Assembly: GCA_014435945.1 (NCBI GenBank)
Contig: GCA_014435945.1_4088.1
Source of the DNA: a phage
Strand: one strand, 5' to 3'
DNA length: 64,000 nucleotides
This document shows positions 1 through 64,000 of this stretch, one piece after another (position 1 is the first letter of the stretch; every line of letters begins with the position of its first letter). The notes beneath the pieces are model-generated. The model made no database searches and had not been told where the DNA came from. It saw only the letters and a list, made by a program, of their open reading frames with translations. Both the position numbers and the translations under genes were made by a program.

Positions 1-207
1 GAAGCAGATATCCAGGCGGTTCAACGGCTTAACGATGAGTTAACGCCGGATGACTTAAGCAAGATTGTAGATCCTCAATTCTACGAAGATATCCACGACA
101 CCGCGTTAAGCGTCGAGGATGTACTAGATAAGCACTTTATTGATACTGATTTGCAGGTTTACGGTCGTAAAAACTTTATCACTATTCACGACATTTACAA
201 TAATTAA
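1..207 (+). CDS. hypothetical protein, 5'-truncated at window edge
   Basis: Frame-1 open from nt 1 to TAA 205-207; no start in window; early promoter follows. Confidence 0.5.
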   Translation, partial: EADIQAVQRLNDELTPDDLSKIVDPQFYEDIHDTALSVEDVLDKHFIDTDLQVYGRKNFITIHDIYNN

Positions 208-210
208 GTA

Positions 211-272
211 TTGACAAAGTATCTTAGTACTGTATAATAGTTTACATCGAGTGAGGGGAAACGGTTCCCCTC
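211..272 (+). promoter_or_regulatory. sigma70-like early promoter (class A) plus 5' leader stem-loop
   Basis: TTGACA 211-216, 16-nt spacer, TGtATAAT with hexamer 233-238; leader hairpin GAGGGGAA-ACGG-TTCCCCTC 253-272. Confidence 0.75.
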
Positions 273-295
273 CTAACAAAGAGAGAGAAATAAAA

Positions 296-478
296 ATGGC
301 TAAATGCACTATCTGTAATAAAGAAATAGTATTAGTTCCAAGTGCCCGTGAACGTGCCGCTCGGTTCGGTGGCAAAGCGTCAGACTATACAAAAATGTTT
401 ACTGCCCATGCAGCTTGCCAGGTAGCAAAACGTTCACAAGAAAGCGTAGAATTAATGCGTAAACTTTCCAAAAAATAA
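296..478 (+). CDS. small hypothetical protein (60 aa), Cys/His-containing
   Basis: ATG 296 after A-rich leader; track ORF 251-478 begins at GTG inside the leader hairpin, so internal ATG preferred. Confidence 0.6.
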   Translation: MAKCTICNKEIVLVPSARERAARFGGKASDYTKMFTAHAACQVAKRSQESVELMRKLSKK

Positions 479-481
479 GTA

Positions 482-542
482 TTGACAAAGTATCTTAGTA
501 CTGTATAATAGTTTACATCAAGTGAGGGGAATGGTTCCCCTC
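482..542 (+). promoter_or_regulatory. sigma70-like early promoter (class A) plus 5' leader stem-loop
   Basis: TTGACA 482-487, TATAAT 504-509 with TG upstream; near-identical copy of 211-238; hairpin 524-542. Confidence 0.75.
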
Positions 543-565
543 CTAACTAAAAGAGAGAAATAAAA

Positions 566-889
566 ATGGCTATGATCCTTGCCCAGAAAGTGGAACTGAA
601 AATTGTAACCTCCTTTGACATTAATGTTAATCGGTGGACTGATTCACACGGCAATACTTACCACTCTTGCTACGTGTCTGCGTTAATTGGCGACCGCTGG
701 GAAGACCTGGGACATGAAACCTTTACATACGGTTACGGTACACAAGGCGAATACACGGGCTTGGAGATCATTAAAGAAACCGTTATAGGTTTCAACCCGA
801 AAGAAAAAGTTATTCACCGCATCGAGGAAGAGATCAACAAAGAAATAACAGTTCGCTACCACGATGTAAAACGTAAGAAAGACATGTAA
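566..889 (+). CDS. hypothetical protein (107 aa)
   Basis: ORF directly downstream of promoter and leader; ATG 566. Confidence 0.7.
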   Translation: MAMILAQKVELKIVTSFDINVNRWTDSHGNTYHSCYVSALIGDRWEDLGHETFTYGYGTQGEYTGLEIIKETVIGFNPKEKVIHRIEEEINKEITVRYHDVKRKKDM

Positions 890-911
890 TAGAATCCATT
901 TAAAGTACTAT

Positions 912-940
912 TTGACATTGCCCAGATAGTACTTTATAAT
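912..940 (+). promoter_or_regulatory. sigma70-like promoter
   Basis: TTGACA 912-917, 17-nt spacer, TATAAT 935-940. Confidence 0.65.
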
Positions 941-984
941 AGACTCTAACTTGTAGTACTAACTTAACTAATAGGATGTATACC

Positions 985-1380
985 ATGATTACTAAATTCT
1001 ACGCTACCCGTGAAGCTGCCCGTATTGTTGCACGCGAGGAAGGAGCAGCATTTAAAGACATGGGCAAAGATGCACCGAAAGGTCAACGCTGGGCCGTACA
1101 GTTCAAAGAAATCTCTGATATTGTGAATTCACCTGAGCCAGTACTAACAGCAGCAGAACTAAAACGAGCGGATATGCTGGCGGCAATACTTGACGCACAA
1201 GATGAATTTATCGCTGATTCTGATATCAAAGTACAGGTAAACCATACCGCTTGGACTCACGCGGATCACCTGGCAAACCTTAAGCGTCCAAGTGAACTGA
1301 TTCGCAACCAGAAAGAGATCCGACATGATCGTAAGGGTAATCGTGTAACAGTATACAGTAAACGCCGCCAGGTTATCTAA
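985..1380 (+). CDS. hypothetical protein (131 aa)
   Basis: ATG 985 with AGGA 973-976 eight nt upstream; track ORF starts at 976 where RBS spacing is poor. Confidence 0.6.
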   Translation: MITKFYATREAARIVAREEGAAFKDMGKDAPKGQRWAVQFKEISDIVNSPEPVLTAAELKRADMLAAILDAQDEFIADSDIKVQVNHTAWTHADHLANLKRPSELIRNQKEIRHDRKGNRVTVYSKRRQVI

Positions 1381-1402
1381 TAACTTGCAGTACTAACAAC
1401 AC

Positions 1403-1428
1403 GGCGGGATCAGTTCCCGCCTTTTTTA
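1403..1428 (+). terminator. rho-independent terminator
   Basis: GGCGGGA-tcagt-TCCCGCC stem-loop followed by TTTTTT. Confidence 0.7.
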
Positions 1429-1441
1429 TAGGACAAACAAA

Positions 1442-1696
1442 ATGATTAAGGTTCAACTATATAAAGATAACATCTTACGGGTACACTATAAAGCACCGAA
1501 GAGAATCATCACAAAGGCCGTACAGCTTGCTAATGAGTTTATTAATGGTAACCTATTACCTAGGAAGTTAAGCAACGGGAAACTGCGTGTAATCGACGTG
1601 GACACTAACAACAGGATAGTAATCGAGAACACAGGAAAGATAAACCTTTATGAGCATCAACAATACAATAAGAAAATAAAACTAATATCACGTTGA
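1442..1696 (+). CDS. hypothetical protein (84 aa)
   Basis: ATG 1442 with AGGA 7 nt upstream. Confidence 0.6.
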   Translation: MIKVQLYKDNILRVHYKAPKRIITKAVQLANEFINGNLLPRKLSNGKLRVIDVDTNNRIVIENTGKINLYEHQQYNKKIKLISR

Positions 1697-1721
1697 CAGT
1701 ACTCAATTGTTTTAGTACTAT
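1693..1721 (+). promoter_or_regulatory. sigma70-like promoter (class C)
   Basis: TTGACA 1693-1698, 17-nt spacer, TACTAT 1716-1721; same module repeated at 1969 and 13931. Confidence 0.6.
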
Positions 1722-1749
1722 GTACACATACCAACACGGGAGAAACAAA

Positions 1750-1968
1750 ATGAAATTATCTAAAATCGAAAAGAAAACTATTGATGAAGCAGTTAAGCAC
1801 GGTTATACCTTTCGTAATGATTCACATTTTACCAATTTTCAACAAGGGTATCGTACTATTAAAAAACTAATTGACAAAGGTTTATTAGTTGAAGTCAATA
1901 ACGGTAACGGTATCGAGTATCAACCAACACAGGACGCATTTTATTTTAAGAAATATAATATTATCTAA
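1750..1968 (+). CDS. small hypothetical protein (72 aa)
   Basis: ATG 1750 (codon 20 of track ORF 1693-1968) after GGGAG; upstream part of track ORF is promoter sequence. Confidence 0.6.
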   Translation: MKLSKIEKKTIDEAVKHGYTFRNDSHFTNFQQGYRTIKKLIDKGLLVEVNNGNGIEYQPTQDAFYFKKYNII

Positions 1969-1997
1969 TTGACAGTACTCAAATGTTTTAGTACTAT
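1969..1997 (+). promoter_or_regulatory. sigma70-like promoter (class C)
   Basis: TTGACA 1969-1974, 17-nt spacer, TACTAT 1992-1997; duplicate of 1693-1721. Confidence 0.6.
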
Positions 1998-2025
1998 ATG
2001 TACATACCAACACGGGGAAAACAAA

Positions 2026-2268
2026 ATGATTACTTTAGAAAAACGTATCAAAGAAACTACATCGCTGGTGGAACTGTTAACAGTACTGAAATGTAAAACA
2101 ACACCATTCAGCACGCCGGACTTTATTAATATGGTTGATGTTAATGGTCGCTATCGCATCACGGTCGAACAAGGAGCGGCGAAAGTATTCAGTACTAAAA
2201 ACACGAAGGAAGTGATCCACGCCGTTAATGTTAAAAAAGTAGTTGCCATTGATAGTAAAGTACTGTAA
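2026..2268 (+). CDS. small hypothetical protein (80 aa)
   Basis: ATG 2026 (codon 20 of track ORF 1969-2268) after GGGGAAAACAAA leader. Confidence 0.6.
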   Translation: MITLEKRIKETTSLVELLTVLKCKTTPFSTPDFINMVDVNGRYRITVEQGAAKVFSTKNTKEVIHAVNVKKVVAIDSKVL

Positions 2269-2271
2269 TAT
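2243..2271 (+). promoter_or_regulatory. candidate sigma70-like promoter
   Basis: TTGCCA 2243-2248, 17-nt spacer, TGTAATAT at 2264-2271. Confidence 0.4.
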
Positions 2272-2299
2272 AGTTTCATTAACTCAAGGAGAACATGCA

Positions 2300-2884
2300 A
2301 TGCGTAATTATACTAAATTCATCCGTACACTGTCAGAAATGGAAACCAACAAAGAGATCCTTTCAGCTTGTCGGTTAGCTGACCTGGAGATCATCGGTGC
2401 TGGTTCTTCCCGTATAGTTTTCGCTTTAAATGATCGGTTAGTGATTAAGGTCGCGAATTGTGATGCGGGTGTAGAACAAAATGAAACTGAATGTATAGTA
2501 TGGAATTTTTTAGACTATGACCGCCCTCAGTTGAAACAGTACTTTGCAAAGGTGCATATGCATTTATGCGATCCTGATAATATGTTTATCGTTATGGATC
2601 GGTTGAGTACTGCAAGCAAAGGCAGTGTGAAGCACGTAAACGCGTGCAATGAATTAAAGTACAATATTAAACGTAATGCAATCGAACGCCAGCACCGCTT
2701 TGCTGATGCACTACAACACGTTGATGATACATTATCAACACTAACGATAAGAGATATCAGAAAACAGAATATCGGCCAGGATCGTAATGGACTTATTAAA
2801 GTACTTGATTACGGTTTAACCAGCAATATCTGGAATCAGTACTATAAAAAGCGTGATGTGGCAGCAAGTAAGGTAACACGATAA
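2300..2884 (+). CDS. minimal Ser/Thr protein kinase-like protein (194 aa)
   Basis: Gly-rich loop IIGAGSSRIVF, Lys in LVIKVA, catalytic-loop-like RDIRKQN, DYG (DFG-like) 19 residues later; AAGGAG 8 nt before ATG 2300. Confidence 0.55.
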   Translation: MRNYTKFIRTLSEMETNKEILSACRLADLEIIGAGSSRIVFALNDRLVIKVANCDAGVEQNETECIVWNFLDYDRPQLKQYFAKVHMHLCDPDNMFIVMDRLSTASKGSVKHVNACNELKYNIKRNAIERQHRFADALQHVDDTLSTLTIRDIRKQNIGQDRNGLIKVLDYGLTSNIWNQYYKKRDVAASKVTR

Positions 2885-2895
2885 AAAAGATTAAA

Positions 2896-2929
2896 AAAGG
2901 GATTGACTCCGGTCAGTCCCTTTGCTATT
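2896..2929 (+). terminator. hairpin terminator, part of a duplicated intergenic module
   Basis: 12-bp stem AAAGGGATTGAC / GTCAGTCCCTTT with 4-nt loop, A-run before and T-rich tail after; conserved box follows at 2958-2980. Confidence 0.6.
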
Positions 2930-3025
2930 ATATATCCATTGAGAGATAACTCACTGACCCATAGGGTGCGGAAGTGTATCTATTATATAAGTATTCAGTA
3001 CTGAAAACTATTTGATAAAAAGTAC

Positions 3026-3086
3026 TTGCAAACTATCTCAATGAGCGTATAATGTTTTATATCGAGAGGGGGAAATGGTTCTCCCT
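3026..3086 (+). promoter_or_regulatory. sigma70-like early promoter (class B) plus leader stem-loop
   Basis: TTGCAA 3026-3031, 16-nt spacer, TATAAT 3048-3053; G-rich leader hairpin 3067-3086. Confidence 0.7.
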
Positions 3087-3108
3087 GGTACTAAAAGGAA
3101 TCAAGACG

Positions 3109-3330
3109 ATGACTACTATGACCTGCGTTCACGCTTCAAATCTTCTGAATGATGCAGCATTTAAAGCAGGTGAAGAATATCAATGCTATCGGGATGAAAA
3201 TAAAAAAGTTTTCGTCGTTGATGCTAACGGTTTCCATATTGAATTACAATCCGGCTTCACTGGTGTTGATGGTAAATCAGTATGGGGCGTTAATGATGAT
3301 AATGGTCTTTATCACTTTATCCGTAATTAA
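3109..3330 (+). CDS. small hypothetical protein (73 aa)
   Basis: ATG 3109 after AAAAGGAA; the MFYIERGKWF extension in the track ORF is translated promoter/leader. Confidence 0.65.
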   Translation: MTTMTCVHASNLLNDAAFKAGEEYQCYRDENKKVFVVDANGFHIELQSGFTGVDGKSVWGVNDDNGLYHFIRN

Positions 3331-3333
3331 GTA

Positions 3334-3392
3334 TTGACAAAGTATCTCAGTACTGTATAATAGTTTACATCAAGGGGAGAATAGTTCTCCCC
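3334..3392 (+). promoter_or_regulatory. sigma70-like early promoter (class A) plus leader stem-loop
   Basis: TTGACA 3334-3339, TGtATAAT with hexamer 3356-3361; hairpin GGGGAGAA-tag-TTCTCCCC 3374-3392. Confidence 0.75.
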
Positions 3393-3413
3393 AATACTAA
3401 AAGGAATAAAATC

Positions 3414-3821
3414 ATGACTACTACTAATCAAGCTCGGTCCATCGCCAACGATAAAAATCATGCTGCAATGGTCGCTGGTTACATTGAAGCTATGCAATTC
3501 AGTACTGTACACAATGAGAACGGCGATTACCTGGAAGATTATGAATTATCAGAGCAAGCCCATCAAGCGGCAGTGATTGCATGTTCACGTTTCCTTGCTG
3601 TACATGGTGAAGATATGGAAACAGTACAAAAACACCATAATCCTGATTATACTTATAGTCATGCAGGTCATGATCTCTTTCTTACTCGCGAAGGTCACGG
3701 CACTGGTTTTTGGGATCGTGATATCGGTCACTATGATGATATATTCACTAAGTACTGCGAAGAAATCAACGTTTGCGATCCCTATGTAGGCGATGATAAT
3801 CTAATCTATATGGGCGAATAA
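3414..3821 (+). CDS. hypothetical protein (135 aa)
   Basis: ATG 3414 after AAAAGGAA RBS. Confidence 0.7.
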   Translation: MTTTNQARSIANDKNHAAMVAGYIEAMQFSTVHNENGDYLEDYELSEQAHQAAVIACSRFLAVHGEDMETVQKHHNPDYTYSHAGHDLFLTREGHGTGFWDRDIGHYDDIFTKYCEEINVCDPYVGDDNLIYMGE

Positions 3822-3827
3822 AAGTAT

Positions 3828-3886
3828 TTGACAAAGTATATTAGTACTGTATAATAGTTTACATCAAGGGGAGAATAGTTCTCCCC
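3828..3886 (+). promoter_or_regulatory. sigma70-like early promoter (class A) plus leader stem-loop
   Basis: TTGACA 3828-3833, TATAAT 3850-3855; hairpin 3868-3886. Confidence 0.75.
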
Positions 3887-3910
3887 ACACCAATAAAAGG
3901 AAACAAAATT

Positions 3911-4183
3911 ATGTCCAGCTACTCCGCTACTATGATCATTAAAGATATGAACGGTAATCCTACTTCTGCTGGTGGATCATTTGGAAACATTAATTTAGAT
4001 GGTCGGTTATCCATGCAATCAGCCATCGATGCAGCGAAAGAAGTTTTTAAGAATGAATGTACTGTTAGTAAGCTGGATTATATGGGATTCGCTATCGAGA
4101 AAACTAATCGTTTTGTGAACTACAAAAATCCACTGATGATTGATACTAACCTGAAAGCTAACGAAGTGGAATACTTATTATGA
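3911..4183 (+). CDS. hypothetical protein (90 aa)
   Basis: ATG 3911 after AAAAGGAA RBS. Confidence 0.7.
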   Translation: MSSYSATMIIKDMNGNPTSAGGSFGNINLDGRLSMQSAIDAAKEVFKNECTVSKLDYMGFAIEKTNRFVNYKNPLMIDTNLKANEVEYLL

Positions 4184-4371
4184 CAGTTGAAGAAGTTAAA
4201 AAAGTACTGGCAGTACTACGCTATCATAATCATTGCAAGGTGAAGAATGATCCTGATTATCTCGATTCATCCCTGGAAGAGGATACACTACAAGCAATAA
4301 GCCATATGCAAAAAATGCTTAAGCGTATGACCGAAAAGAATAGGCCGGACTATATCGGAAATAAAATTTAA
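4180..4371 (+). CDS. small hypothetical protein (63 aa)
   Basis: ATGA start/stop overlap with upstream gene. Confidence 0.55.
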   Translation: MTVEEVKKVLAVLRYHNHCKVKNDPDYLDSSLEEDTLQAISHMQKMLKRMTEKNRPDYIGNKI

Positions 4372-4378
4372 AAAGTAC

Positions 4379-4440
4379 TTGCATTGTAGTTAGATTAACG
4401 TATAATGTTTTATATCGAGAGGGGGAAATGGTTTCCCCTC
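4379..4440 (+). promoter_or_regulatory. sigma70-like early promoter (class B) plus leader stem-loop
   Basis: TTGCAT 4379-4384, 16-nt spacer, TATAAT 4401-4406; bulged G-rich hairpin 4419-4440. Confidence 0.7.
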
Positions 4441-4458
4441 AAGTCCAGGAGATACACA

Positions 4459-4722
4459 ATGAACACTATCGAAATCACTATCAATGCACACGTATACGAC
4501 AACGTAGTACTGCAAACTACTATGACCGCCAATGATACCAGTACTTTGCGGAATACTGTTATTAGTGCTGTATGTGCCGCTATCGGTGATGTCGCCCTGG
4601 AAAATGCAAAACACGTAAACGATGGTTTCACTATGTGCAAACGTGATAACGCAAAACATATCATCGTGGAAGGTTACGGCGGTGTAGAATTTAATGTTTA
4701 TATGAAAAAAGTACTTGCATAA
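4459..4722 (+). CDS. hypothetical protein (87 aa)
   Basis: ATG 4459 after CAGGAG; track ORF 4405 begins inside the leader. Confidence 0.65.
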   Translation: MNTIEITINAHVYDNVVLQTTMTANDTSTLRNTVISAVCAAIGDVALENAKHVNDGFTMCKRDNAKHIIVEGYGGVEFNVYMKKVLA

Positions 4723-4771
4723 TAACTAAAACAAAGTATAATGTTTTGCATAGGGGGAGATATCCTCCCCC
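4715..4771 (+). promoter_or_regulatory. sigma70-like early promoter (class B) plus leader stem-loop
   Basis: TTGCAT 4715-4720, TATAAT 4737-4742; hairpin GGGGGAG-atatc-CTCCCCC 4753-4771. Confidence 0.7.
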
Positions 4772-4789
4772 ACTAAAAGGAGTAATAAA

Positions 4790-5014
4790 ATGGCTAACTT
4801 TGATGAACTGATGCGGGAAGTAGCTAACCTGGCAGAAGAGAAGAAATCATTCGATTCTATCTATAACACCGCTCACCGTGATTCAGTACTGGCATGTAAC
4901 CAGGATCAAAAAGATGAACTAATCGCCACCTATCATGAAGCATGGAAGTACTACCGACAATGGGAGAAAGAAGAAAGTGAGTCTACCATTGACGGCCTCA
5001 ATAATCTAATCTAA
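4790..5014 (+). CDS. small hypothetical protein (74 aa)
   Basis: ATG 4790 after AAAAGGAG RBS. Confidence 0.7.
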   Translation: MANFDELMREVANLAEEKKSFDSIYNTAHRDSVLACNQDQKDELIATYHEAWKYYRQWEKEESESTIDGLNNLI

Positions 5015-5033
5015 AAGTTTTATTTCAGTACTA

Positions 5034-5063
5034 TTGACATAGCTTGATAGTACTGATGTAATA
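5034..5063 (+). promoter_or_regulatory. candidate sigma70-like promoter
   Basis: TTGACA 5034-5039 with imperfect -10 (TGTAAT/TAATAA) 17-19 nt downstream. Confidence 0.4.
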
Positions 5064-5090
5064 ACTTTACTAACTACAAGGGGAAACATA

Positions 5091-5348
5091 ATGGATCAAT
5101 TCACACAATATCGGGTAAATCCTCAAGCTATGGCCTACGTAGAAGACCATAAAACGTTACCAGTACTGCAACCAGTTAAAGGCCATATCTATCGTGCAAT
5201 GTCGTGGTGTACGGCCCAGGATGGCTATAAAACCGTAGCCGTGGGTATGTATTGCGGTAATGGTGAATGGTTTGATCCAAATAATCCGGTAGCCATTGAC
5301 AGTACTGAAAAAATGAAATGGGCCGACTACATCGAAGATATTTCATAA
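5091..5348 (+). CDS. hypothetical protein (85 aa)
   Basis: ATG 5091 after AAGGGGAAA. Confidence 0.65.
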   Translation: MDQFTQYRVNPQAMAYVEDHKTLPVLQPVKGHIYRAMSWCTAQDGYKTVAVGMYCGNGEWFDPNNPVAIDSTEKMKWADYIEDIS

Positions 5349-5355
5349 AAACTAT

Positions 5356-5416
5356 TTGACAGTACTAACCAGTAATGTATAATGTTTTACATAGAGCGGG
5401 GGAATAGTTCTCCCGC
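5356..5416 (+). promoter_or_regulatory. sigma70-like early promoter plus leader stem-loop
   Basis: TTGACA 5356-5361, 16-nt spacer, TATAAT 5378-5383; hairpin GCGGGGGAA-tag-TTCTCCCGC 5396-5416. Confidence 0.7.
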
Positions 5417-5438
5417 CAATAGTTTGGAGTAAAACATT

Positions 5439-5639
5439 ATGTCTATCGCTATCGCCCTGGTTGAAGTACTGAAAGAAGCTAAAGCCAACCTTATCGATGT
5501 ACAGATTAAGGAATTGCAAAACGGCTTAATCGGCTGTACTTGTACCGCTGGTGGAGCGGCAGACTATCGAGAACACGAATCACTCGAATCACTGGTTCGG
5601 TATCTTACCATGATCGTTGATGATTGGAGAATCATCTAA
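5439..5639 (+). CDS. small hypothetical protein (66 aa)
   Basis: ATG 5439 after TGGAG. Confidence 0.65.
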   Translation: MSIAIALVEVLKEAKANLIDVQIKELQNGLIGCTCTAGGAADYREHESLESLVRYLTMIVDDWRII

Positions 5640-5654
5640 CAAAAAAGAATAAAA

Positions 5655-5688
5655 AAAGGGATTGACTCAGGTCAGTCCCTTTGCTATT
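5655..5688 (+). terminator. hairpin terminator, second copy of the duplicated intergenic module
   Basis: Same 12-bp stem as 2896-2923 with loop tcag; conserved box at 5712-5735. Confidence 0.6.
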
Positions 5689-5804
5689 ATATACGCATAG
5701 ACAAAAACTAGCCCACAGGGTGCATAAGTGTATCCAAAATATATAGTTAATAACGGTGAGTAACTATCTGCTGGTGGAGTGAAAACTATTAATAAAAAAA
5801 AGTA

Positions 5805-5833
5805 TTGACAAAGTATATCAGTACTGCAATAAT
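5805..5833 (+). promoter_or_regulatory. sigma70-like early promoter (class A variant)
   Basis: TTGACA 5805-5810, 17-nt spacer, TGcAATAAT at 5825-5833. Confidence 0.6.
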
Positions 5834-5886
5834 GTATCTCGTAGGGCGGCAATGGTGCGACGGCCCACAAAGTTAGGAGATTCAAA

Positions 5887-6219
5887 ATGACTACTTCAAT
5901 CGCTATCGTTAAAGCTTTCATCCGTACTAATGTTTCCTCTGTATTCATCGACGGCCTCGACCGTAACGTAGAATACTCAATCATTATCGCACAAACGGCA
6001 AACGGTTCTCGGTACATCCTGAATGATAGTGAAGCAAATCACTACTACTTCACTAAAGCCACTGGCTTTAAACGCATCGATGCTGATGTAGTATACGCTA
6101 AGATGAATAAGCTGGTAGACAAGATTAACGCGAAAGGTACTATCGATTTACAGTACTGGACCGAAACCGATCCAGAATATGGATCTCACCGCTACCTGAA
6201 TCCAGGTATTAAAATGTAA
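5887..6219 (+). CDS. hypothetical protein (110 aa)
   Basis: ATG 5887 after AGGAG. Confidence 0.7.
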   Translation: MTTSIAIVKAFIRTNVSSVFIDGLDRNVEYSIIIAQTANGSRYILNDSEANHYYFTKATGFKRIDADVVYAKMNKLVDKINAKGTIDLQYWTETDPEYGSHRYLNPGIKM

Positions 6220-6226
6220 AAAGTAC

Positions 6227-6289
6227 TTGCATAGTACTTAGATTCATGTATAATGTTTTACATAGAGAGGGGGAAATGGTTCTCCCTCC
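6227..6289 (+). promoter_or_regulatory. sigma70-like early promoter (class B) plus leader stem-loop
   Basis: TTGCAT 6227-6232, 16-nt spacer, TATAAT 6249-6254; G-rich hairpin about 6267-6289. Confidence 0.7.
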
Positions 6290-6308
6290 TAAATTAAGGA
6301 GTTTTATC

Positions 6309-6710
6309 ATGACCTTCTCAATCACTTCCTTCGCTGACGTTTTAGTACTGGCTCGGACTTTTGGTAAAGATGCACTGGAGTACGCTGTAAGTAATGGCAC
6401 TATCCAACCGGAACAGTGCCGCATCATTGGAAACTGCAAACGTTGGGCGGTATCCAATACTATTGCACTGGAAAACTTCAACGATGGCAACAATGAATAT
6501 TCTGTTGATGTAGTATTCGAAGCCGTAGACCTGGGCGGTATCTATAACACTAACCTGAATGATGTGCGTATCGTTCGCACTGGCTTCGGTGCTTATGATG
6601 TATCTATCCGTGAAGCTATGGACAAGGGATACATTAGCAAGGACTTACTTGCTCACATCATGCAGCTATGGACGGAACGTAACGAAGCACGTACTATCTT
6701 AGGGCTGTAA
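6309..6710 (+). CDS. hypothetical protein (133 aa)
   Basis: ATG 6309 after AAGGAG; track ORF 6246 begins inside promoter/leader. Confidence 0.65.
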   Translation: MTFSITSFADVLVLARTFGKDALEYAVSNGTIQPEQCRIIGNCKRWAVSNTIALENFNDGNNEYSVDVVFEAVDLGGIYNTNLNDVRIVRTGFGAYDVSIREAMDKGYISKDLLAHIMQLWTERNEARTILGL

Positions 6711-6734
6711 GCAATACACATCACCAAACATCAT

Positions 6735-6754
6735 AGGCCGCTCTCTAGCGGCCT
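6735..6754 (+). other. stem-loop without U-tract
   Basis: GGCCGC-tctcta-GCGGCC palindrome after stop of 6309-6710. Confidence 0.35.
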
Positions 6755-6778
6755 TAACTATATCAGGAGTACATACAC

Positions 6779-6988
6779 ATGATCTATACAGTATACAACG
6801 TTCTAGGCACTATTGCAGGCGTACATGATAACGTCGATAGTGCTATGCGTACAGTACTGCAACAGGTTCCACTAAAGCCTAAGACCATTAAGCAGATGAC
6901 AGCACGACTAACCAGGGCGACGGCTGGCGTGGAAGTATGGCAGGACTATGGGGATACACAGATAATCGTAAGCGTAACGAAGGATTAA
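6779..6988 (+). CDS. small hypothetical protein (69 aa)
   Basis: ATG 6779 after CAGGAG. Confidence 0.65.
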   Translation: MIYTVYNVLGTIAGVHDNVDSAMRTVLQQVPLKPKTIKQMTARLTRATAGVEVWQDYGDTQIIVSVTKD

Positions 6989-7134
6989 TGCGTAAAGGGA
7001 TCTAGTACTGATTCAGAAAAAAGTCAAGGCGTTTTTAAAATTATGCGTTAAAAAAATGCATAGGTAATCCCTTGACTTTTTTGAAATAAAAGGGATTGGA
7101 CTATGGCAAAATGCGTAGGGGGCTAAAGGGCGGG
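6987..7134 (+). repeat. iteron-like direct repeats in a 250-bp intergenic region
   Basis: ATGCGTA(A/G)(A/G)GGG at about 6988 and 7109 with a variant near 7044; TAAAGGG core recurs near 6994, 7088, 7124, 7153. Confidence 0.4.
7017..7082 (+). other. 13-bp perfect inverted repeat (long hairpin, terminator-like)
   Basis: AAAAAAGTCAAGG 7017-7029 pairs with CCTTGACTTTTTT 7070-7082 across a 40-nt loop. Confidence 0.45.
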
Positions 7135-7179
7135 TAACCTTAGCGACTTCGATAAAGGGGTATTACTTATAAAATGTTA

Positions 7180-7207
7180 TTGACTTTTTATATGAATCGT
7201 ATATTAT
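7180..7207 (+). promoter_or_regulatory. candidate sigma70-like promoter for the F1 array
   Basis: TTGACT 7180-7185, 16-nt spacer, TATTAT 7202-7207. Confidence 0.45.
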
Positions 7208-7237
7208 TGGATTGATATTATTTTTAATGGAGTCCCT

Positions 7238-7435
7238 ATGCGTATTTTAACTCAAGAAGAGCACAACCACACACTCATATCCAACATGGCATATATCCTA
7301 CATATGTCACATATCCGTGGTATTGCATATAAGCGTGAATTGGTTATGAAACTTTTCATAGGAACTAACTATCAAGAAAAGTATATCGAACTATACTTAC
7401 AAGAATTACGAAGGGACATAAAAGGTAGACTATGA
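7238..7435 (+). CDS. F1 small paralog protein (65 aa)
   Basis: F1 member; C-terminal motif FIGTNYQEKYIELYL; first gene of tandem array. Confidence 0.65.
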   Translation: MRILTQEEHNHTLISNMAYILHMSHIRGIAYKRELVMKLFIGTNYQEKYIELYLQELRRDIKGRL

Positions 7436-7632
7436 AAATGCGTATTTTAAATAAAGAAGATTATCAAGAACTGTTACGTAAAAACATGGTAAAGATTTAT
7501 AACACAGACACAAACTTAGAACGAATTGAGTTATACCTTTTGATTACATTGGGAACAAGCTATCAGGGAAGATGGGTGATTCAATATATGGATGCATTGA
7601 AAAATGAAATATTATCCACGAGGAAACAATGA
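7432..7632 (+). CDS. F1 small paralog protein
   Basis: F1 motif LGTSYQGRWV; ATGA overlap with upstream stop. Confidence 0.65.
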   Translation: MKMRILNKEDYQELLRKNMVKIYNTDTNLERIELYLLITLGTSYQGRWVIQYMDALKNEILSTRKQ

Positions 7633-7838
7633 AAACTATAACACGAACCCAATCATACGGTCTTATCTTGAGATACATGGACTTAATGTTGGATATCAGA
7701 AAAGACCTTCCTAAAACTGCAATTGAAGTTGCAAGAGCAGAGATCCGCATGTTGGCTGTACTGAACACAAACCATCAGGAAGAGTATGTTGACGATTGGA
7801 TTCGATTTTTAATAGAAGATATTAAGAGGAAACTATGA
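7629..7838 (+). CDS. F1 small paralog protein
   Basis: F1 motif LNTNHQEEYV; ATGA overlap. Confidence 0.65.
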   Translation: MKTITRTQSYGLILRYMDLMLDIRKDLPKTAIEVARAEIRMLAVLNTNHQEEYVDDWIRFLIEDIKRKL

Positions 7839-8047
7839 TTTTTTTAACACCAGAAGAATATAAGATACGTTTTGTTTCTGTCCAGAATAAAATCTTAATT
7901 ATATACAATTCAAATGCAGACCTTAACTTATCAAGGGTATTAGAAAAAGATTTACTTATGGGTGCATTTTTGGATACAGACTTTCAGGTGTATTATGTAG
8001 GGGAATACTTAATTGCACTCCAGAATTACATTAAGAGTAAACTATGA
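7835..8047 (+). CDS. F1 small paralog protein
   Basis: F1 motif FLDTDFQVYYV; close paralog of 8044-8256. Confidence 0.65.
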   Translation: MIFLTPEEYKIRFVSVQNKILIIYNSNADLNLSRVLEKDLLMGAFLDTDFQVYYVGEYLIALQNYIKSKL

Positions 8048-8256
8048 ATAGCATTAACTCAAATCTATATACCGAACGCGTCGCTGCCAGACAACTTGAA
8101 ATTCTCATAGTATATGAAGAGACTGATGATTTAAACTTAGCATTAGTATTGGAAAATGATATACTATTGGGTGCATTCCTCGGCACAGACTATCAGGAGC
8201 ACTTCTTGAATGAGTATATAATTGCACTCCAGAAATACATTAAGAGCAAACTATGA
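8044..8256 (+). CDS. F1 small paralog protein
   Basis: F1 motif FLGTDYQEHFL; ATGA overlap. Confidence 0.65.
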   Translation: MNSINSNLYTERVAARQLEILIVYEETDDLNLALVLENDILLGAFLGTDYQEHFLNEYIIALQKYIKSKL

Positions 8257-8471
8257 AACATTTAAGTAATTACGAGAAGAATAAAATTATCGTTGCTGCA
8301 ATAAACAAATATTTTACACTTCCTCACACAGAAGGTTTATGTGTAAGGGAACACAGGATAAACACCACCGATATACGCATGATGGCTGTACTGGGGACGA
8401 ACTTTCAGGAAGAGTATGTTGTTGCACACATAGTTGCCCTCACTGATTTAATAAGGGACAAATGCAAATGA
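8253..8471 (+). CDS. F1 small paralog protein
   Basis: F1 motif VLGTNFQEEYV; N-term MKHLSNYEK. Confidence 0.65.
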   Translation: MKHLSNYEKNKIIVAAINKYFTLPHTEGLCVREHRINTTDIRMMAVLGTNFQEEYVVAHIVALTDLIRDKCK

Positions 8472-8686
8472 AAGACATAAACACTCAAGAATATCTTAAA
8501 CGATTAGAACAAGGGAAGAACTTTAGACTTCAAGTTTACGATGATGAATCACTAACATCCAATGAAAAGTATGTTATACTAACAGACTCAACATTAATAC
8601 CATTTGTAGGAACAAACTATCAGGAGGTTATGGTAGACAACCACATCACGGCCTTAAAATGTCATGTCAGGGATTTAGGTAAATGA
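8468..8686 (+). CDS. F1 small paralog protein
   Basis: F1 motif FVGTNYQEVMV; start set at ATGA overlap (track 8462). Confidence 0.6.
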   Translation: MKDINTQEYLKRLEQGKNFRLQVYDDESLTSNEKYVILTDSTLIPFVGTNYQEVMVDNHITALKCHVRDLGK

Positions 8687-8940
8687 AACACTTAACTGAT
8701 GATGAATTTGAAACTATAATTCGTAAACTAACCCCCATCACAAGGATAGTCTACGGTGACCCCAGCCTTACATGGAACCAAATGCGAGCTAAAGTTAATG
8801 AGCTATGGTTGCTGTACTTTATGGGGACTCAATATCAAGATAAGTTTTGCACAGAATATATCGAACAATTAACGAATGTTATACAGGATAAACTAGATGA
8901 TTATTTGCTCACAAAACATGAAGACTTTATCAGGAGTTGA
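8683..8940 (+). CDS. F1 small paralog protein
   Basis: F1 motif FMGTQYQDKF; N-term MKHLTDDEF. Confidence 0.65.
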   Translation: MKHLTDDEFETIIRKLTPITRIVYGDPSLTWNQMRAKVNELWLLYFMGTQYQDKFCTEYIEQLTNVIQDKLDDYLLTKHEDFIRS

Positions 8941-9169
8941 GTATCAAACTGCCCTATTCTCTTTAATCCATACCCTTAGAAAAAACAATGCCTTACATGG
9001 TGCACCTGAAGTGGATGTTATCAACGGTGAACTTTATCTTATGAAATTCATTGGAACAAACTATCAAGATCTGTTCATTCAACGATACTTATCAGCATTA
9101 AGAAACCAAATCCAATATAAAACCATCAAGGCCAAAAAAGAATGGAATAAACAATGCGACACAGACTAA
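8918..9169 (+). CDS. F1 small paralog protein
   Basis: F1 motif FIGTNYQDLFI; start chosen at MKTLSGVEY by family N-terminal consensus (track 8897). Confidence 0.55.
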   Translation: MKTLSGVEYQTALFSLIHTLRKNNALHGAPEVDVINGELYLMKFIGTNYQDLFIQRYLSALRNQIQYKTIKAKKEWNKQCDTD

Positions 9170-10727: not shown

Positions 10728-10739
10728 ATGCAAAAGGAA

Positions 10740-10958: not shown

Positions 10959-10959
10959 A

Positions 10960-11190: not shown

Positions 11191-11191
11191 A

Positions 11192-55403: not shown

Positions 55404-55432
55404 TACTATCTAGCCTAGCACAAGGAGAAGTG

Positions 55433-55687
55433 ATGGCTAAACCTAAGTATAAAAATGACGGTTCCCTTTCTCCGACAGAATTCAGGAAAATACAAGAAGA
55501 AATCGATGAATTACAGCACAAACGCTCTAAGAAAGGTGTGAAGATTAGTAAGAAACGAATCGAGAATACTTTCGGGTGTAGTAGTACTGAATACAAGAAG
55601 AAAAGGAAACCAAAAGGTGTTAAGCCGAGAATACATGATGTAACTCGCTATACATCGAAACGTGAAAATAAATTCGACCCACTATAA
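55433..55687 (+). CDS. small highly basic protein (84 aa)
   Basis: AAGGAG 5 nt before ATG 55433; Lys/Arg-rich. Confidence 0.55.
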   Translation: MAKPKYKNDGSLSPTEFRKIQEEIDELQHKRSKKGVKISKKRIENTFGCSSTEYKKKRKPKGVKPRIHDVTRYTSKRENKFDPL

Positions 55688-56225: not shown

Positions 56226-57158
56226 ATGCCAACTATCACACTAACAGTTGGATTGCCAGGGTGTGGTAAAACTACATGGGCAGTGCAAGAGATTAAAAAA
56301 GCCAAATCCAAGACTATCAACATCAACCGTGATGATATTCGTGAATCTATGGCTGGGTCACATGATGCTTACAAATTCAACGATGCTAATGAGCAGTACG
56401 TAACTAATTTACAGTTCAGTGCAGCAAATTCAGCCGCAGAGAATGGTTGGAACATCATCATATCCGATACGAACCTTAAACAACATTTCCGTAATCTATG
56501 GAAAGTATGGGCTACAGATAATGGTTATGATTACAAAGAAAAGAATTTCTATGATGATTTTGTACCTAATGAAGACCGTGGTGCAGATGTTCATGAATTC
56601 TTTAAGATTAAAGAGTTCGTAAAACTTTGTAAGAAATATAACCTCCAGCGTGAGCGTTCAGTACAAGATAATATCATTGACACTATGGCAGATACGTACT
56701 ATTATAGTAAGGCATTACACATTGGTTACTATGGTAATTCACGCGAAGCTGCTATTATCGTTGATATCGACGGTACTCTTGCTCATAAATGGGGACGTAA
56801 CCCGTTCGATGAAAGTACTGTTCTCCAGGACACACCAGACGAAGAAGTTATTTTGTCTATTATCGCAGAAGCAGTTTTTCATAAACGCAAGATTATCGTC
56901 ATGAGTGGGCGTACTGAAGGGTGTCGTGCTGATACCGAACAGTGGCTTAAGAATTGGGGTATTCCTTACGATGCATTGTTTATGCGAGACATTGATGATA
57001 AACGTCCTGATGATGTTGTCAAATTCGACCTGTACATGAAAAATGTGGTTGATCATTACGATGTTAAAAAGGTATATGATGACCGCAATCAAGTTGTGTT
57101 CATGTGGCGTAAGTTACTTGGGTTGAAAGTTTTTCAAGTGGCTGAAGGAAATTTCTAA
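56226..57158 (+). CDS. pseT: polynucleotide 5'-kinase/3'-phosphatase (T4 Pnk-like)
   Basis: P-loop GLPGCGKTT, NINRDD, ISDTN, phosphatase DIDGTLA and DDR motifs; collinear with T4 Pnk over full length. Confidence 0.88.
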   Translation: MPTITLTVGLPGCGKTTWAVQEIKKAKSKTININRDDIRESMAGSHDAYKFNDANEQYVTNLQFSAANSAAENGWNIIISDTNLKQHFRNLWKVWATDNGYDYKEKNFYDDFVPNEDRGADVHEFFKIKEFVKLCKKYNLQRERSVQDNIIDTMADTYYYSKALHIGYYGNSREAAIIVDIDGTLAHKWGRNPFDESTVLQDTPDEEVILSIIAEAVFHKRKIIVMSGRTEGCRADTEQWLKNWGIPYDALFMRDIDDKRPDDVVKFDLYMKNVVDHYDVKKVYDDRNQVVFMWRKLLGLKVFQVAEGNF

Positions 57159-61297: not shown

Positions 61298-61301
61298 TAA
61301 T

Positions 61302-61571
61302 ATGCATGATGATATTAAAAAATCATTGTATGATTTATATATTATGAAAAAAACCATCAATTCTATACTTGCCGACCAGATCAAACAGGTACGTAACTTC
61401 CTATCAAAAAAACTTATTGGTGCAGAGGTTAAATTCCATTACAAAAAAAATGTCGTGGTTGATGGTGTTATTAGAAGAGTAGTTACAATTTCAGACCAAA
61501 CAATATATGTTGAAGTTGAATATGATGGTAAATTATCACAATTAAGTACTGAAGATTTAACATTTTTATAA
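61302..61571 (+). CDS. F4 small paralog protein
   Basis: Motif SKKLIGAEVKFHY (track 61266). Confidence 0.5.
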   Translation: MHDDIKKSLYDLYIMKKTINSILADQIKQVRNFLSKKLIGAEVKFHYKKNVVVDGVIRRVVTISDQTIYVEVEYDGKLSQLSTEDLTFL

Positions 61572-61581
61572 GGAAATAGAA

Positions 61582-61809
61582 ATGAAAGTAATTCAAGTTA
61601 TGGTAGAAAAATACCAAACTGAAGATGGCCGTATTTTTGATTCAGCTAAACAAGCTGAACATCATGAACGTATTATTTCTGGTGCACGTAAAGTATGCCC
61701 TACATGTAATGGAACACAACAAGTACCATCTGAAGACTATCGCAGTTATTATGCTTGTCCACATTGTGATGGTAAAGGGTTTGTAGAAAAACAAGAGGTA
61801 TGGAAATGA
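61582..61809 (+). CDS. small zinc-finger protein (DnaJ-type CxxCxGxG)
   Basis: CPTCNGTQ and CPHCDGKG motifs; AAGGAA RBS. Confidence 0.6.
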   Translation: MKVIQVMVEKYQTEDGRIFDSAKQAEHHERIISGARKVCPTCNGTQQVPSEDYRSYYACPHCDGKGFVEKQEVWK

Positions 61810-62219
61810 AATTATATTGCTTAACAAACATGTACTGCCAAGGTGTACAAGCTGGAATTCAAGCATTTCATGCTGGCGTAAAACTAATTAAAGAATATGA
61901 AGGTACTGCTTTCAGTACTATTATTGATGAATGGTATTATGACCACGAAACTATTGTAGTACTAAATGCTGGCGGTCATGATAAGTTAAATTCTTATTAT
62001 GATGACCTTTGTAAGCAGGGAAAAGTGCCATTCGCTAAATTCAATGAAGCCGGATTAAATGATGCAACTACATGTGTAGCAGTACTGTGTACATCTGAAA
62101 TGGTTGAAGACATGTCTGTTATGCGTATGAATCTTCCTGCTGGGGATCAACTAATGCAAGTAAAATATGGTGCATTGTTTAACACATTAAAAGCAATTAG
62201 TACAATGAGGACTGTTTGA
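61806..62219 (+). CDS. hypothetical protein (137 aa)
   Basis: ATGA overlap at 61806 (track 61800). Confidence 0.55.
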   Translation: MKLYCLTNMYCQGVQAGIQAFHAGVKLIKEYEGTAFSTIIDEWYYDHETIVVLNAGGHDKLNSYYDDLCKQGKVPFAKFNEAGLNDATTCVAVLCTSEMVEDMSVMRMNLPAGDQLMQVKYGALFNTLKAISTMRTV

Positions 62220-63418
62220 TGGATTTTCCAGAGAAGTTATTTGTTGCTCGTTCGTATGTAAATCATAACCAAGTTACTGGTTACATTATAGATGCCACAA
62301 AATCGCACACAAAAGCGTTTGAGACTAAAAAAGAAAAGGCCGAGTACTGGGCTAAGAAAAACAATCTACCTTCACTATGGATTGATAATGTGCCTACAAT
62401 TGGGTTTTCTGTGGTACATAAGCTCACTGTTCATGCTCGTGAAACATACTTCACCATACGTCACCCTGAAGGTTTCGAGTTCTTGGTGAGTGCTAAAAAC
62501 ATGAACGACCTTATCATCAACAATGATATTGTTAAGGGTGTATTTGTTGAACCTATGTTCTTCAATAATAGTTTAGAACTAATTAACGGTAAAACTAAAA
62601 CCTTTGCTAAATTGGTTGAGAAGGAAAATAAGAAAGAACAACAAAAAGAAGTTGTTTCTAAATTGAAAGTGGGTGATGGTTTTAGACACAATAAAGAAGA
62701 TTACTATTATTGTGGTAAAGTAAATGCTATTTGTATCAAGAAAACTAAAGAGTTTTCATTTTCTGATAAGAGTTCCAAGTATCACTTAGTATATAATACT
62801 ACTCGTGGGACATATGCTCTTAATGCTCGTCTTGAAACTTATGCATTAGAACCAAGTGCTGCACTGAATGTGAAAACTACAGTTCAAGATGAAATTGTTA
62901 AAGCTAATGCATTTTGGCAAAATATCCAACGAAATCGCCATAACCCATTATGTGAAAGCAATGTACCAGTACTGATAAGTGATAAGTCGTTTAAAGCACA
63001 AGATTTGAAAGTAAAGTACGAAGAAATCAATCCTGATGATATAATGAGTAATGGACGATTCAACGAGAACGTACCGTTCATGTGTAAAGTTGATGAACAG
63101 GCATATCGTGTTTTCTTTGGTGTAAAGAACAATACAACCAGAAGTTATTATGGTCGTAATGGTGATTATATTCTTCAATACACTGATGTATTTGAACGAT
63201 ACAGTGCGTATCCAGTTGAAATTGATGCTAATGGCATTATGACAATGGATGTGGATTTAAACGAACATGTATCATTTGGTACATGGAATGGATACCGTTC
63301 TCCTTTCTTCCCACCAACAGAAAATAAAACATCATCAACTCGTTACTACCAAGAAAAACCTTGTCACGTCCAGCTATCACTAAGTAATACACTTTACATT
63401 GGAAAGTATTATCTATAA
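62216..63418 (+). CDS. hypothetical protein (400 aa)
   Basis: Long ORF with ATGA overlap; no recognised motif. Confidence 0.65.
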   Translation: MMDFPEKLFVARSYVNHNQVTGYIIDATKSHTKAFETKKEKAEYWAKKNNLPSLWIDNVPTIGFSVVHKLTVHARETYFTIRHPEGFEFLVSAKNMNDLIINNDIVKGVFVEPMFFNNSLELINGKTKTFAKLVEKENKKEQQKEVVSKLKVGDGFRHNKEDYYYCGKVNAICIKKTKEFSFSDKSSKYHLVYNTTRGTYALNARLETYALEPSAALNVKTTVQDEIVKANAFWQNIQRNRHNPLCESNVPVLISDKSFKAQDLKVKYEEINPDDIMSNGRFNENVPFMCKVDEQAYRVFFGVKNNTTRSYYGRNGDYILQYTDVFERYSAYPVEIDANGIMTMDVDLNEHVSFGTWNGYRSPFFPPTENKTSSTRYYQEKPCHVQLSLSNTLYIGKYYL

Positions 63419-63429
63419 GGGAATATATA

Positions 63430-64000
63430 ATGAGCATTTTAGCAATTCTTGAAAGCATTAAAAATACTAGCAGTACTCTGGGTAAAAAAGCTATCCTTGA
63501 ACAAAACAAAGATAACCAAACATTACAAAAAGTACTGAAATATACACTAGACCCTTCAATTGTAAGTGGGTATAAAAAGCTACCACAAGCTGATGATGTA
63601 TATCAACATATGACATTAGACGAAGCTATTGATAAGCTAGAATGCATTTACAAACGTGGTGTGACCGGAAATGCTGGACGTGACTTCATTGCTTCAGTAC
63701 TGGGTTCAGTATCAGAAGATGACCAAGAAGTTCTTCGTAAAATGCTCACGAAGAACCTTGATTGTGGTATCCAAGAAAAGAACTGCAATGATGTGTTCGG
63801 GAAAGGTTTCATCAAAGACGAACCATACATGCGTTGTTCGTTGATTGACAAAAAGACTGCAAAGAACATTAACTTCAAAGATTATGGTTATGCTATATCA
63901 GAAGTGAAAATGGATGGTCAGTACTTGAACCACGTTGTCATTAATGGTTCATTAACTTCTACATCCCGTAATGGTAAACTATACGACTTCCTGGGTTGTC
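63430..64000 (+). CDS. ATP-dependent DNA ligase (T4 gp30-like), 3'-truncated at window edge
   Basis: N-terminus MSILAILESIKNTSSTLGKKAILEQNKDNQTLQKVL parallels T4 ligase; lysine motif EVKMDG; frame open to window end. Confidence 0.8.
   Translation, partial: MSILAILESIKNTSSTLGKKAILEQNKDNQTLQKVLKYTLDPSIVSGYKKLPQADDVYQHMTLDEAIDKLECIYKRGVTGNAGRDFIASVLGSVSEDDQEVLRKMLTKNLDCGIQEKNCNDVFGKGFIKDEPYMRCSLIDKKTAKNINFKDYGYAISEVKMDGQYLNHVVINGSLTSTSRNGKLYDFLGC

Follow-up and report, generated by a model that had tools for sequence, protein, structure and literature searches.

We found that the palindrome AGTACT behaves as a selected DNA word in a 64,000-nt stretch of phage DNA (GenBank assembly GCA_014435945.1, contig GCA_014435945.1_4088.1; the whole stretch is referred to below as the window) and in the jumbo phages related to it. 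The word is strongly enriched independently of coding, has symmetric flanks, is kept by purifying selection, follows a clade of enterobacterial phages in its distribution and occupies fixed places in early promoters. We tentatively favor, at a confidence somewhat short of even, the explanation that its extended form CAGTACTG, set in a weak dyad of ~22 bp, is read on the duplex by a phage-made, dimeric, sequence-specific protein, for which it would serve as an address tag or operator.

The window has a G+C content of 33.8%. Open reading frames (ORFs) of at least 45 codons tile it and all lie on the + strand; the gene set used here comprises 156 such crudely called ORFs and covers 91% of the sequence. 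An 8-kb query from the window is 98.1% identical to Escherichia phage fEgEco12, and the identity is 97.7% when 61.7 kb are compared. Phages vB_Ec-M-J and CMSTMSU are 97% identical to the window, and vB_Eco_slurp01 (species Asteriusvirus PBECO4; slurp01 below) is 87% identical over 40.8 kb. Judged by nucleotide identity and synteny, the window comes from an Asteriusvirus-like jumbo coliphage. The whole fEgEco12 genome measures 374,733 bp with direct terminal repeats of ~21 kb (20,993 bp according to its authors; PMC13070987). The window maps to ~14–78 kb of this genome, which places its first 7 kb inside the terminal repeat. The genome counts of AGTACT and GCGC for fEgEco12 refer to 353.7 kb (353,740 bp), with the terminal repeat counted in one copy, unless the full record is named.

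Enrichment and coding context

An initial inspection of the window, hereafter the original prediction, had estimated 200–350 copies of AGTACT against an expectation near 20. The exact count is 203 (3.2 per kb over the 64,000 nt), at the lower end of that range, and the expectation is 21.4 from base composition or 17.2 from an order-1 Markov model; it rises to 39.4 at order 2 and to 83.3 at order 3, the comparison that the original prediction had proposed. AGTACT ranks first among the hexamers of the window, CAGTAC comes next and GTACTG is fifth. The inner tetramer GTAC, likewise described at the outset as several-fold enriched, occurs 574 times with 191–196 expected. The fEgEco12 genome contains 977 copies of AGTACT, ~8-fold the compositional expectation, and its full record contains 1,115 against 126 expected, AGTACT being the top hexamer there too. 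The sites of the window are summarized as follows.

1–64,000, no strand: AGTACT, dispersed, 203 copies; extended consensus (T/A-rich)-C-AGTACT-G-(A/T-rich), with the 8-mer core CAGTACTG

The first alternative to be weighed is that the enrichment arose passively, from codon or amino-acid usage, mutation bias, biased short-patch repair or a spreading repeat element. AGT, ACT and GTA are common codons, and codon usage alone lifts the expectation from ~20 to ~46 coding sites. The excess over this raised expectation is large. Synonymous shuffling within genes gave 82.4±5.4 copies of AGTACT with a maximum of 98 (z=22), shuffling of the synonymous pool across all genes gave 74.4±5.4 and permutation of codon order gave 58.4±4.2, against 203 observed; the three codon-preserving nulls together correspond to z=22–34, and region-wise shuffles agree. 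The 36 intergenic or edge sites stayed unshuffled and are contained in each null, so that the coding excess amounts to ~167 sites observed against ~46 expected, and the nulls are conservative because the motif itself raises the codon frequencies that they preserve. The original prediction had singled out a codon-preserving shuffle that reproduces the count as the mark of a by-product; the shuffles return 58–82 copies. The over-representation is thus real and does not follow from coding.

The sites occur in all three reading frames and between genes. In the window, 67 sites are read as AGT-ACT (Ser-Thr, frame 0), 42 as xAG-TAC-T (frame 1) and 58 as xxA-GTA-CTx (frame 2), which bears out the AGT-ACT and xAG-TAC contexts reported in the original prediction, while 36 are intergenic or at the margins of the crude gene calls, a few of them probably coding. 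Site density is 6.4 per kb in non-coding and 2.9 per kb in coding sequence. Across fEgEco12, 837 of the 977 sites are inside genes; the density is flat along genes and similar in + and - strand genes (2.6 and 2.3 per kb), with a small peak at promoters and a dip at the ribosome-binding site. The word also leaves its mark on the encoded proteins: Ser-Thr dipeptides number 794 in fEgEco12 with 540 expected from composition (a 47% excess), against 528 for the control Thr-Ser, and 414 of them (52%) are spelled AGT-ACT where codon usage predicts 122. Val-Leu and Lys/Gln/Glu-Tyr pairs behave in the same way. The DNA word therefore shapes the proteins and not the reverse, under a selection strong enough to bend both codon choice and protein composition.

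Two further passive origins were tried and rejected. A repair drive of the Dcm/Vsr type requires depletion of one-mismatch neighbors, which is seen for none of the 18: under an order-2 model in fEgEco12 their observed/expected ratios range from 0.94 to 1.90, with AGTATT and AATACT at 1.17–1.23. A dispersed repeat element (REP/MITE-like) would share sequence around its copies, whereas the information outside positions -1/+6 is at most 0.05 bit, no similarity extends beyond ~±8 and the commonest motif-containing 12-mer occurs five times. Considering, in addition, that intergenic density exceeds coding density, that amino-acid usage is bent and that the sites are conserved above same-phase neighbors (see below), we assign a negligible probability to any by-product explanation.

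Flank symmetry, conservation and distribution among phages

The bases next to the hexamer are as informative as its excess. C at -1 and G at +6 each occur at 89 of the 203 window sites. In fEgEco12, C at -1 has a frequency of 0.40–0.46 in all frames and in intergenic sequence, against a background of 0.15–0.18, and G at +6 reaches 0.53–0.54 in intergenic sequence as well as in frames 0 and 2, with a weak enrichment in frame 1 (0.22 against 0.14). As a result of counting the full 8-mer, CAGTACTG was found 221 times in fEgEco12 with 3.8 expected, and GAGTACTC six times. Weaker preferences widen the pattern to a dyad of ~22 bp, namely T at -3/-4, A at +8/+9, A at -7/-8 and T at +12/+13, and the A/T flank preferences out to ±8 are alike in four genera. 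Such frame-independent symmetry, in a region transcribed in one direction, points to recognition of duplex DNA and not of RNA or codons. Spacings of 20–24 bp between sites are mildly in excess (31 against 13.5 expected) and there is no spacing peak at 18. The positional periodicity raised in the original prediction comes down to this mild excess, as neither a helical nor a long-range period was seen.

Sequence conservation was compared at three distances. Between the window and fEgEco12, four of 200 aligned sites are changed, while 20.6 changes are expected from all hexamers (p=5e-6). Between the window and slurp01, 103 of 126 sites are conserved (82%) against 58.5% for neighboring hexamers in the same codon phase, and the excess is present in each frame and between genes. 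Across genera, at ~73% identity, 30%, 32% and 54% of sites are conserved against 19%, 16% and 13% for the controls (p=0.03, 0.005 and 0.0004, respectively), which means that most sites turn over in the long term while their density is kept. AGTACT sites are under purifying selection. Selection at the DNA level, as suggested in the original prediction, is thereby borne out by the shuffles, the presence in all frames and between genes, the symmetric flanks, the conservation at three distances and the distorted amino-acid usage.

The phage comparison used genome samples, with the following AGTACT counts (observed/order-1 expected).

slurp01: 173/13
Yersinia fHe-Yen9-04: 82/11
Klebsiella RaK2: 119/12
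Cronobacter GAP32: 253/14
Agrobacterium Atu_ph07: 3/5
Pseudomonas PA5oct: 3/14
T5: 10/14

The enriched relatives share the same flanks. Public viral contigs of at least 8 kb that were matched by their capsid protein at a minimum of 90% identity are all enriched, 3- to 7-fold (10 of 10), whereas none of the 34 contigs matched at 72% capsid identity or less exceeds ~3-fold. The motif clade consists of the genera Asteriusvirus, Eneladusvirus, Alcyoneusvirus and Mimasvirus, all enterobacterial jumbo phages.

This distribution has to be weighed against a reading in which a host protein of the Enterobacterales, nucleoid-associated or involved in division control (SlmA, for example), binds the motif and is exploited by the phage. 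All motif-rich phages infect Enterobacterales, and the phages of Pseudomonas (PA5oct) and Agrobacterium (Atu_ph07) show no enrichment. In addition, the SlmA site GTGAGTACTCAC is a 12-bp sequence with GT..AC outer bases and an AGTACT core. The flanks speak otherwise: the G at -1 and C at +6 that SlmA requires are the most depleted flanks of all (0.25–0.6 times background), GTNAGNNNNCTNAC occurs twice in 354 kb with 3.8 expected, and the full SlmA site does not occur, so that an identity with the SlmA-binding site was rejected. The LexA SOS box (TACTG-N10-CAGTA) and the TrpR operator (GTACT-N8-AGTAC) were rejected likewise, with three of each in 354 kb, no excess of spacings of either type and no peak at 18. 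T5, which grows on the same host, is not enriched (10 against 14), and selection would act against a host repressor bound at the early promoters. We consider a host reader very unlikely. The lack of enrichment in T5 and in relatives at 72% capsid identity or less argues for a reader encoded by the clade itself and not for a general pressure from the host.

The same phages show a second, opposite signature. The tetramer GCGC is absent from the window and from the 353,740 bp of fEgEco12, where 215–354 copies are expected and where it is the sole missing tetramer. It is also absent from all AGTACT-enriched samples and contigs, whereas its frequency is normal in Atu_ph07, PA5oct, T5, E. coli and the contigs matched at no more than 72% capsid identity; a 50-kb sample of E. 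coli K-12 contains 342 GCGC and three AGTACT. The absence of GCGC may reflect a GCGC-specific phage nuclease. One contig, IMGVR_UViG_3300027985_000435 (72% capsid identity), combines a 3-fold excess of AGTACT (14 against 4.6 expected) with normal GCGC (18 against 17.8) and may stem from an intermediate lineage that has the one signature without the other. Furthermore, 27 palindromic hexamers are missing from the window, nearly all of them GC-rich (among them GGATCC, CTGCAG, GTCGAC, CCATGG, GGTACC and CGTACG); AT-rich palindromes such as GAATTC and GATATC have normal frequencies and GATC stands at about half of its expectation. The general avoidance of palindromes by phages, on which the original prediction was built, therefore holds here for GC-rich words, with AGTACT as a sharp exception. 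Short palindromes are expected to be purged from phages; for one of them a whole clade of ~350-kb phages has gone the other way, while purging GCGC completely.

Early promoters and regional pattern

The density of AGTACT is patchy along the window, with ~6.4 sites per kb in 1–7,004 and ~3.6 per kb from 23,384 onward, and with none in 7,005–12,725 and in 14,429–23,383. The regions and promoter sites concerned are listed below.

1–7,004, no strand: terminal-repeat part of the window, 44–45 AGTACT, 6.4 per kb, the densest region
226–231, no strand: early promoter of the sigma70 type (TTGACAaagtatcttAGTACTgTATAAT) whose spacer contains AGTACT, 7 nt upstream of the -10 element
904–960, no strand: three AGTACT around one promoter, at 904, 928 and 955, with spacings of 24 and 27 bp
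5,361–5,366, no strand: AGTACT overlapping a -35 element (TTGACAGTACT), with the same arrangement at 13936
7,238–13,390, + strand: tandem array of 27 paralogous tiny genes (65–94 aa) with a shared LGTNYQE-like motif
14,429–23,383, + strand: one-orientation island with no AGTACT, 52 AGTACA (all on the + strand) and no TGTACT
23,384–64,000, no strand: region of early and middle genes with 148 AGTACT, where synonymous shuffling yields 42–51

In the terminal-repeat part of the window nearly all GTAC fall inside AGTACT. Near-consensus sigma70-type promoters number 27 in the terminal repeat, and in most of them AGTACT starts 7–8 nt upstream of the -10 element, as TTGACA-N9/10-AGTACTG-TATAAT or AGTACTGgCATAAT. 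The spacer arrangement seen at 226 recurs at 497, 3349, 3843 and 5820, and 23 promoter-like sites of fEgEco12 have a start of AGTACT at this distance. Many terminal-repeat promoters contain a second site just 5' of the -35 element or overlapping it, which gives pairs 22–24 bp apart around -35. In the trio at 904–960, one site lies just 5' of -35, one abuts -10 and one is downstream. The promoter examples given in the original prediction are present: cttAGTACTgtataat begins at 226 and again at 497, and ttgacAGTACT is found at 5361 and at 13936. These promoter-associated positions lie inside the footprint of RNA polymerase. The word as a whole was nevertheless rejected as a sigma70 promoter element, since its position is fixed in 23 promoter-like sites but most of its copies are intragenic and evenly spread.

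The early transcripts of the terminal repeat start with a conserved GC-rich hairpin, GGGGAGAA...TTCTCCCC (-13 to -16 kcal/mol), ~12 nt past the -10 element. Such 5' hairpins are found at ~250–275, 520–545, 3375–3395, 3868–3888, 4418–4440, 5395–5416 and 6262–6287, no T-run follows them, and they are probably structures that stabilize the 5' end of the transcript.

The two regions without AGTACT differ in kind. In 7,005–12,725, which is largely taken up by the tandem array, GTAC as a whole is at or below the shuffle nulls, and the lack of sites is more simply explained by the recent amplification of a site-free unit; the proteins of the array have no Pfam match. The genes of the island at 14,429–23,383 do not form one paralogous family. 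Here the 52 AGTACA stand against a synonymous-shuffle null of 14–21, the + strand has 57 copies of AGTAC and the - strand a single one, and GTACT accounts for one of the 87 GTAC with 11.7±3.1 in the shuffle null. The AGTACA sites have C at -1 and G at +6, matching the palindromic sites, and tandem AGTACAGTACA units are present in the island. The equivalent region of slurp01 contains 44 AGTACA, five AGTACT and no TGTACT, with 28 of 40 sites conserved against a background of 49%. An AGTACA-type island was not seen in the early region of GAP32.

The terminal repeat is also a place where Chi concentrates. In fEgEco12 the Chi sequence GCTGGTGG is present in 24 + and 12 - strand copies with ~3 expected, and 10 of the 24 + strand copies lie in varied contexts within the 21-kb terminal repeat, where the Chi sites span positions 578–19625. 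An inverted pair is found within 600 bp of the left end (CCACCAGC at 578 and GCTGGTGG at 590). The copies in the window are the following.

2064, 3968, 5547, 5770 and 54345, + strand: Chi
45694, - strand: Chi

The Chi excess accompanies the motif in the cultured genomes sampled, and the arrangement looks like a protection of the genome ends against RecBCD. No mention of the AGTACT motif, the GCGC gap or the stacking of Chi in these phages was found in the searchable literature.

Taken together, the island and the Chi pattern bear on an alternative in which the unit read is the strand-specific pentamer AGTAC (or GTACT), followed along one strand by a primase, by a recombination nuclease or helicase, in a phage analog of Chi, or by a translocase; the palindrome would then be the cheapest way to present the pentamer on both strands of a coding-dense genome. 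The one-orientation island keeps this alternative alive through its strand bias (57 against 1), its enriched and conserved AGTACA, its depleted GTACT and its tandem AGTACAGTACA units, and the terminal repeats, in which Chi also gathers, have the highest density of the motif. Outside the island, by contrast, AGTACN and NGTACT have observed/expected ratios of 1.2–1.9, no more than other one-off neighbors, the flanks are dyad-symmetric to ±8, and the GAP32 early region has no such island. Known primases, moreover, read 3–5 nt and not 8. We regard reading along one strand as possible, though unlikely.

Other genes of the window were recognized in passing. A T4-type RNA ligase 1 (54261–55403) and a polynucleotide kinase/phosphatase (56226–57158) form an RNA-repair pair whose order is syntenic with GAP32_080 and GAP32_084. 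The pre-early terminal-repeat gene at 1442–1696 encodes a basic protein of 84 aa with a ParE-like toxin domain (PF24732, E=4.6e-11). Its conservation extends to jumbo phages of Escherichia, Klebsiella, Salmonella, Erwinia, Yersinia, Serratia, Pectobacterium and Cronobacter, and in K64-1 it carries a YafQ-like annotation.

Candidate readers and comparison with known systems

Under the explanation that we favor, a putative two-fold symmetric phage protein would bind CAGTACTG duplexes across the genome. As the word is ~50 times denser in the phage than in the host sample, the protein would be concentrated on phage DNA and would not be titrated away by the 4.6-Mb host chromosome, and the ~1,000 evenly spread sites would act as an address tag that targets it to phage DNA in general. 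Given the fixed places of AGTACT in early promoters, the same protein, sitting there, would also switch pre-early transcription, most probably by repression (shut-off). We infer the dimeric nature of the reader, its origin from the phage and the effects of its binding from the pattern of sites. Among the functions that the original prediction had offered as examples, that of a binding site agrees best with the data; the evidence given below weakens the case for a modification site, and a packaging signal is unlikely because ~1,000 sites are evenly dispersed.

Several points weigh against a symmetric dimeric reader. It does not predict the one-orientation AGTACA island, nor is it obvious how the ~86% of sites inside genes could act as operators. 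The AGTACT density of the phage is indeed ~50 times that of the host sample, with the host value taken from a single 50-kb sample. A Pfam scan of 130 of the 156 window ORFs (two of the 27 tiny-gene paralogs included) revealed no DNA-binding domain, and the small early proteins conserved in the clade fall in PHROG families without an assigned function and without a DNA-binding domain. Two basic proteins were considered as readers and set aside, namely the 84-aa terminal-repeat protein, which is ParE-like, and an 85-aa protein at 55430–55684, which is conserved in only part of the clade.

The methyltransferases of the clade deserve separate consideration, as AGTACT or its inner GTAC might be the target of a phage modification enzyme, the modified sites serving as an epigenetic self-mark as in the model for HIP1. 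One such enzyme is encoded in the window.

46,444–46,968, + strand: Dam-family N6-adenine DNA methyltransferase (PF05869), judged an unlikely writer at the motif

The clade thus encodes orphan methyltransferases, which include, besides this enzyme, a C5 methyltransferase of fEgEco12 (279943–280803, PF00145, 286 aa) and a PF01555 methyltransferase of fHe-Yen9-04. The homologs of the Dam-family enzyme are broadly and uninformatively spread; T1 Dam is among its relatives (32% identity), and no relative with a solved structure was found. We take T1 Dam to be its nearest characterized relative, with GATC as the presumed target. The fEgEco12 C5 enzyme aligns over its full length with the catalytic domains of mammalian DNMT3A/B. 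RaK2 DNA has been reported as CpG-methylated, on the basis of bisulfite sequencing, and as having a Dam-type resistance pattern (PMC3622015). The likeness to DNMT3 and the RaK2 data suggest that the two enzymes are probably CpG and GATC enzymes, so that phage methyltransferases are unlikely readers or writers of the motif. The DNA of fEgEco12 is cut normally by ten enzymes, which indicates that there is no bulk base modification (PMC13070987). The enzymes that cut it include the CpG-sensitive SmaI, NruI and ClaI, at odds with a CpG methylation as in RaK2 (PMC13070987).

The modification model gains from the danger that ~1,000 unprotected ScaI/RsaI-type sites would pose, and from HIP1, which has the same pattern of over-representation and conservation (PMC5861425, PMC4390886). 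The specificities suggested for the two enzymes count against it, as do flank preferences over ~22 bp, which are unusual for a methyltransferase, and the finding that no one-off neighbor is depleted. We judge modification at the motif to be quite improbable.

A broader variant of the binding-site explanation would join the signatures described above into a two-part code that separates self from host DNA without base modification, with CAGTACTG as the positive tag and the absence of GCGC as the negative one. In the phage, AGTACT-centered words would occur at intervals of ~350 bp as CAGTACTG tags, and their reader would organize, protect or regulate the phage chromosome; GCGC, found every ~150 bp in E. 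coli and absent from the phage, would let a phage nuclease break down host DNA without harm to the phage's own; the Chi copies clustered in the terminal repeats would shield the genome ends from RecBCD; and the AGTACA island would be a polar variant of the same tag. We consider this complete code improbable.

The pattern implies a sequence-specific reader acting at ~1,000 sites per genome and may represent a means of marking self DNA without base modification, which would have a bearing on the ways in which large lytic phages tell their own DNA from the host's. Phages of this clade that are candidates for therapy would be extremely sensitive to ScaI- and RsaI-type restriction unless protected. 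The combination of raised AGTACT and zero GCGC provides a simple clade signature for metagenomes, and the CAGTACTG site could serve directly as bait in an oligonucleotide pull-down of the protein.

Among known systems, the SlmA sites (SBS), the Noc sites (NBS) and the operators of P1 C1 are, like AGTACT, scattered words with dyad symmetry, which would concentrate one dimeric protein, and in its presumed working AGTACT resembles such operators and nucleoid-marking sites more than it does HIP1. They number tens of sites, in contrast to the ~1,000 of AGTACT, whose density is 20–50 times higher, and no counterpart of their ParB, TetR or repressor-like readers was found among the window ORFs scanned. 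Chi, DUS/USS and KOPS resemble AGTACT in that density is kept while individual sites turn over and in that the word separates self from foreign DNA, and Chi is truly enriched in the same phages. All of these are asymmetric and used in one orientation, whereas AGTACT is palindromic except in the 9-kb island. The pre-early region of T5 has in common with this clade a long direct terminal repeat, small genes and near-consensus TTGACA-N16/17-TATAAT promoters, but T5 shows neither AGTACT enrichment nor GCGC avoidance. The avoidance of restriction sites by phages is visible in the window (no GCGC, 27 hexamers absent), and AGTACT is its opposite, being ~10-fold up.

The closest parallel is HIP1 (GCGATCGC) of cyanobacteria. 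Both words are iterated many-fold, occur in all frames and in intergenic sequence and are conserved above background, and the function of HIP1, like that of AGTACT, is still under debate (PMC5861425, PMC4390886). Of the features of HIP-type words, a many-fold excess genome-wide, occurrence in all frames and in non-coding sequence that codon usage does not explain, and conservation above matched controls are found for AGTACT. Methyltransferases are present in the clade, but no cognate one could be tied to AGTACT, and there is no strong periodicity beyond the mild 20–24 bp excess. It is, moreover, a different word, it belongs to a virus and not to a cell, and it stands in core promoter positions. 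What is new here is thus a selected genomic word that is a palindrome in a virus.

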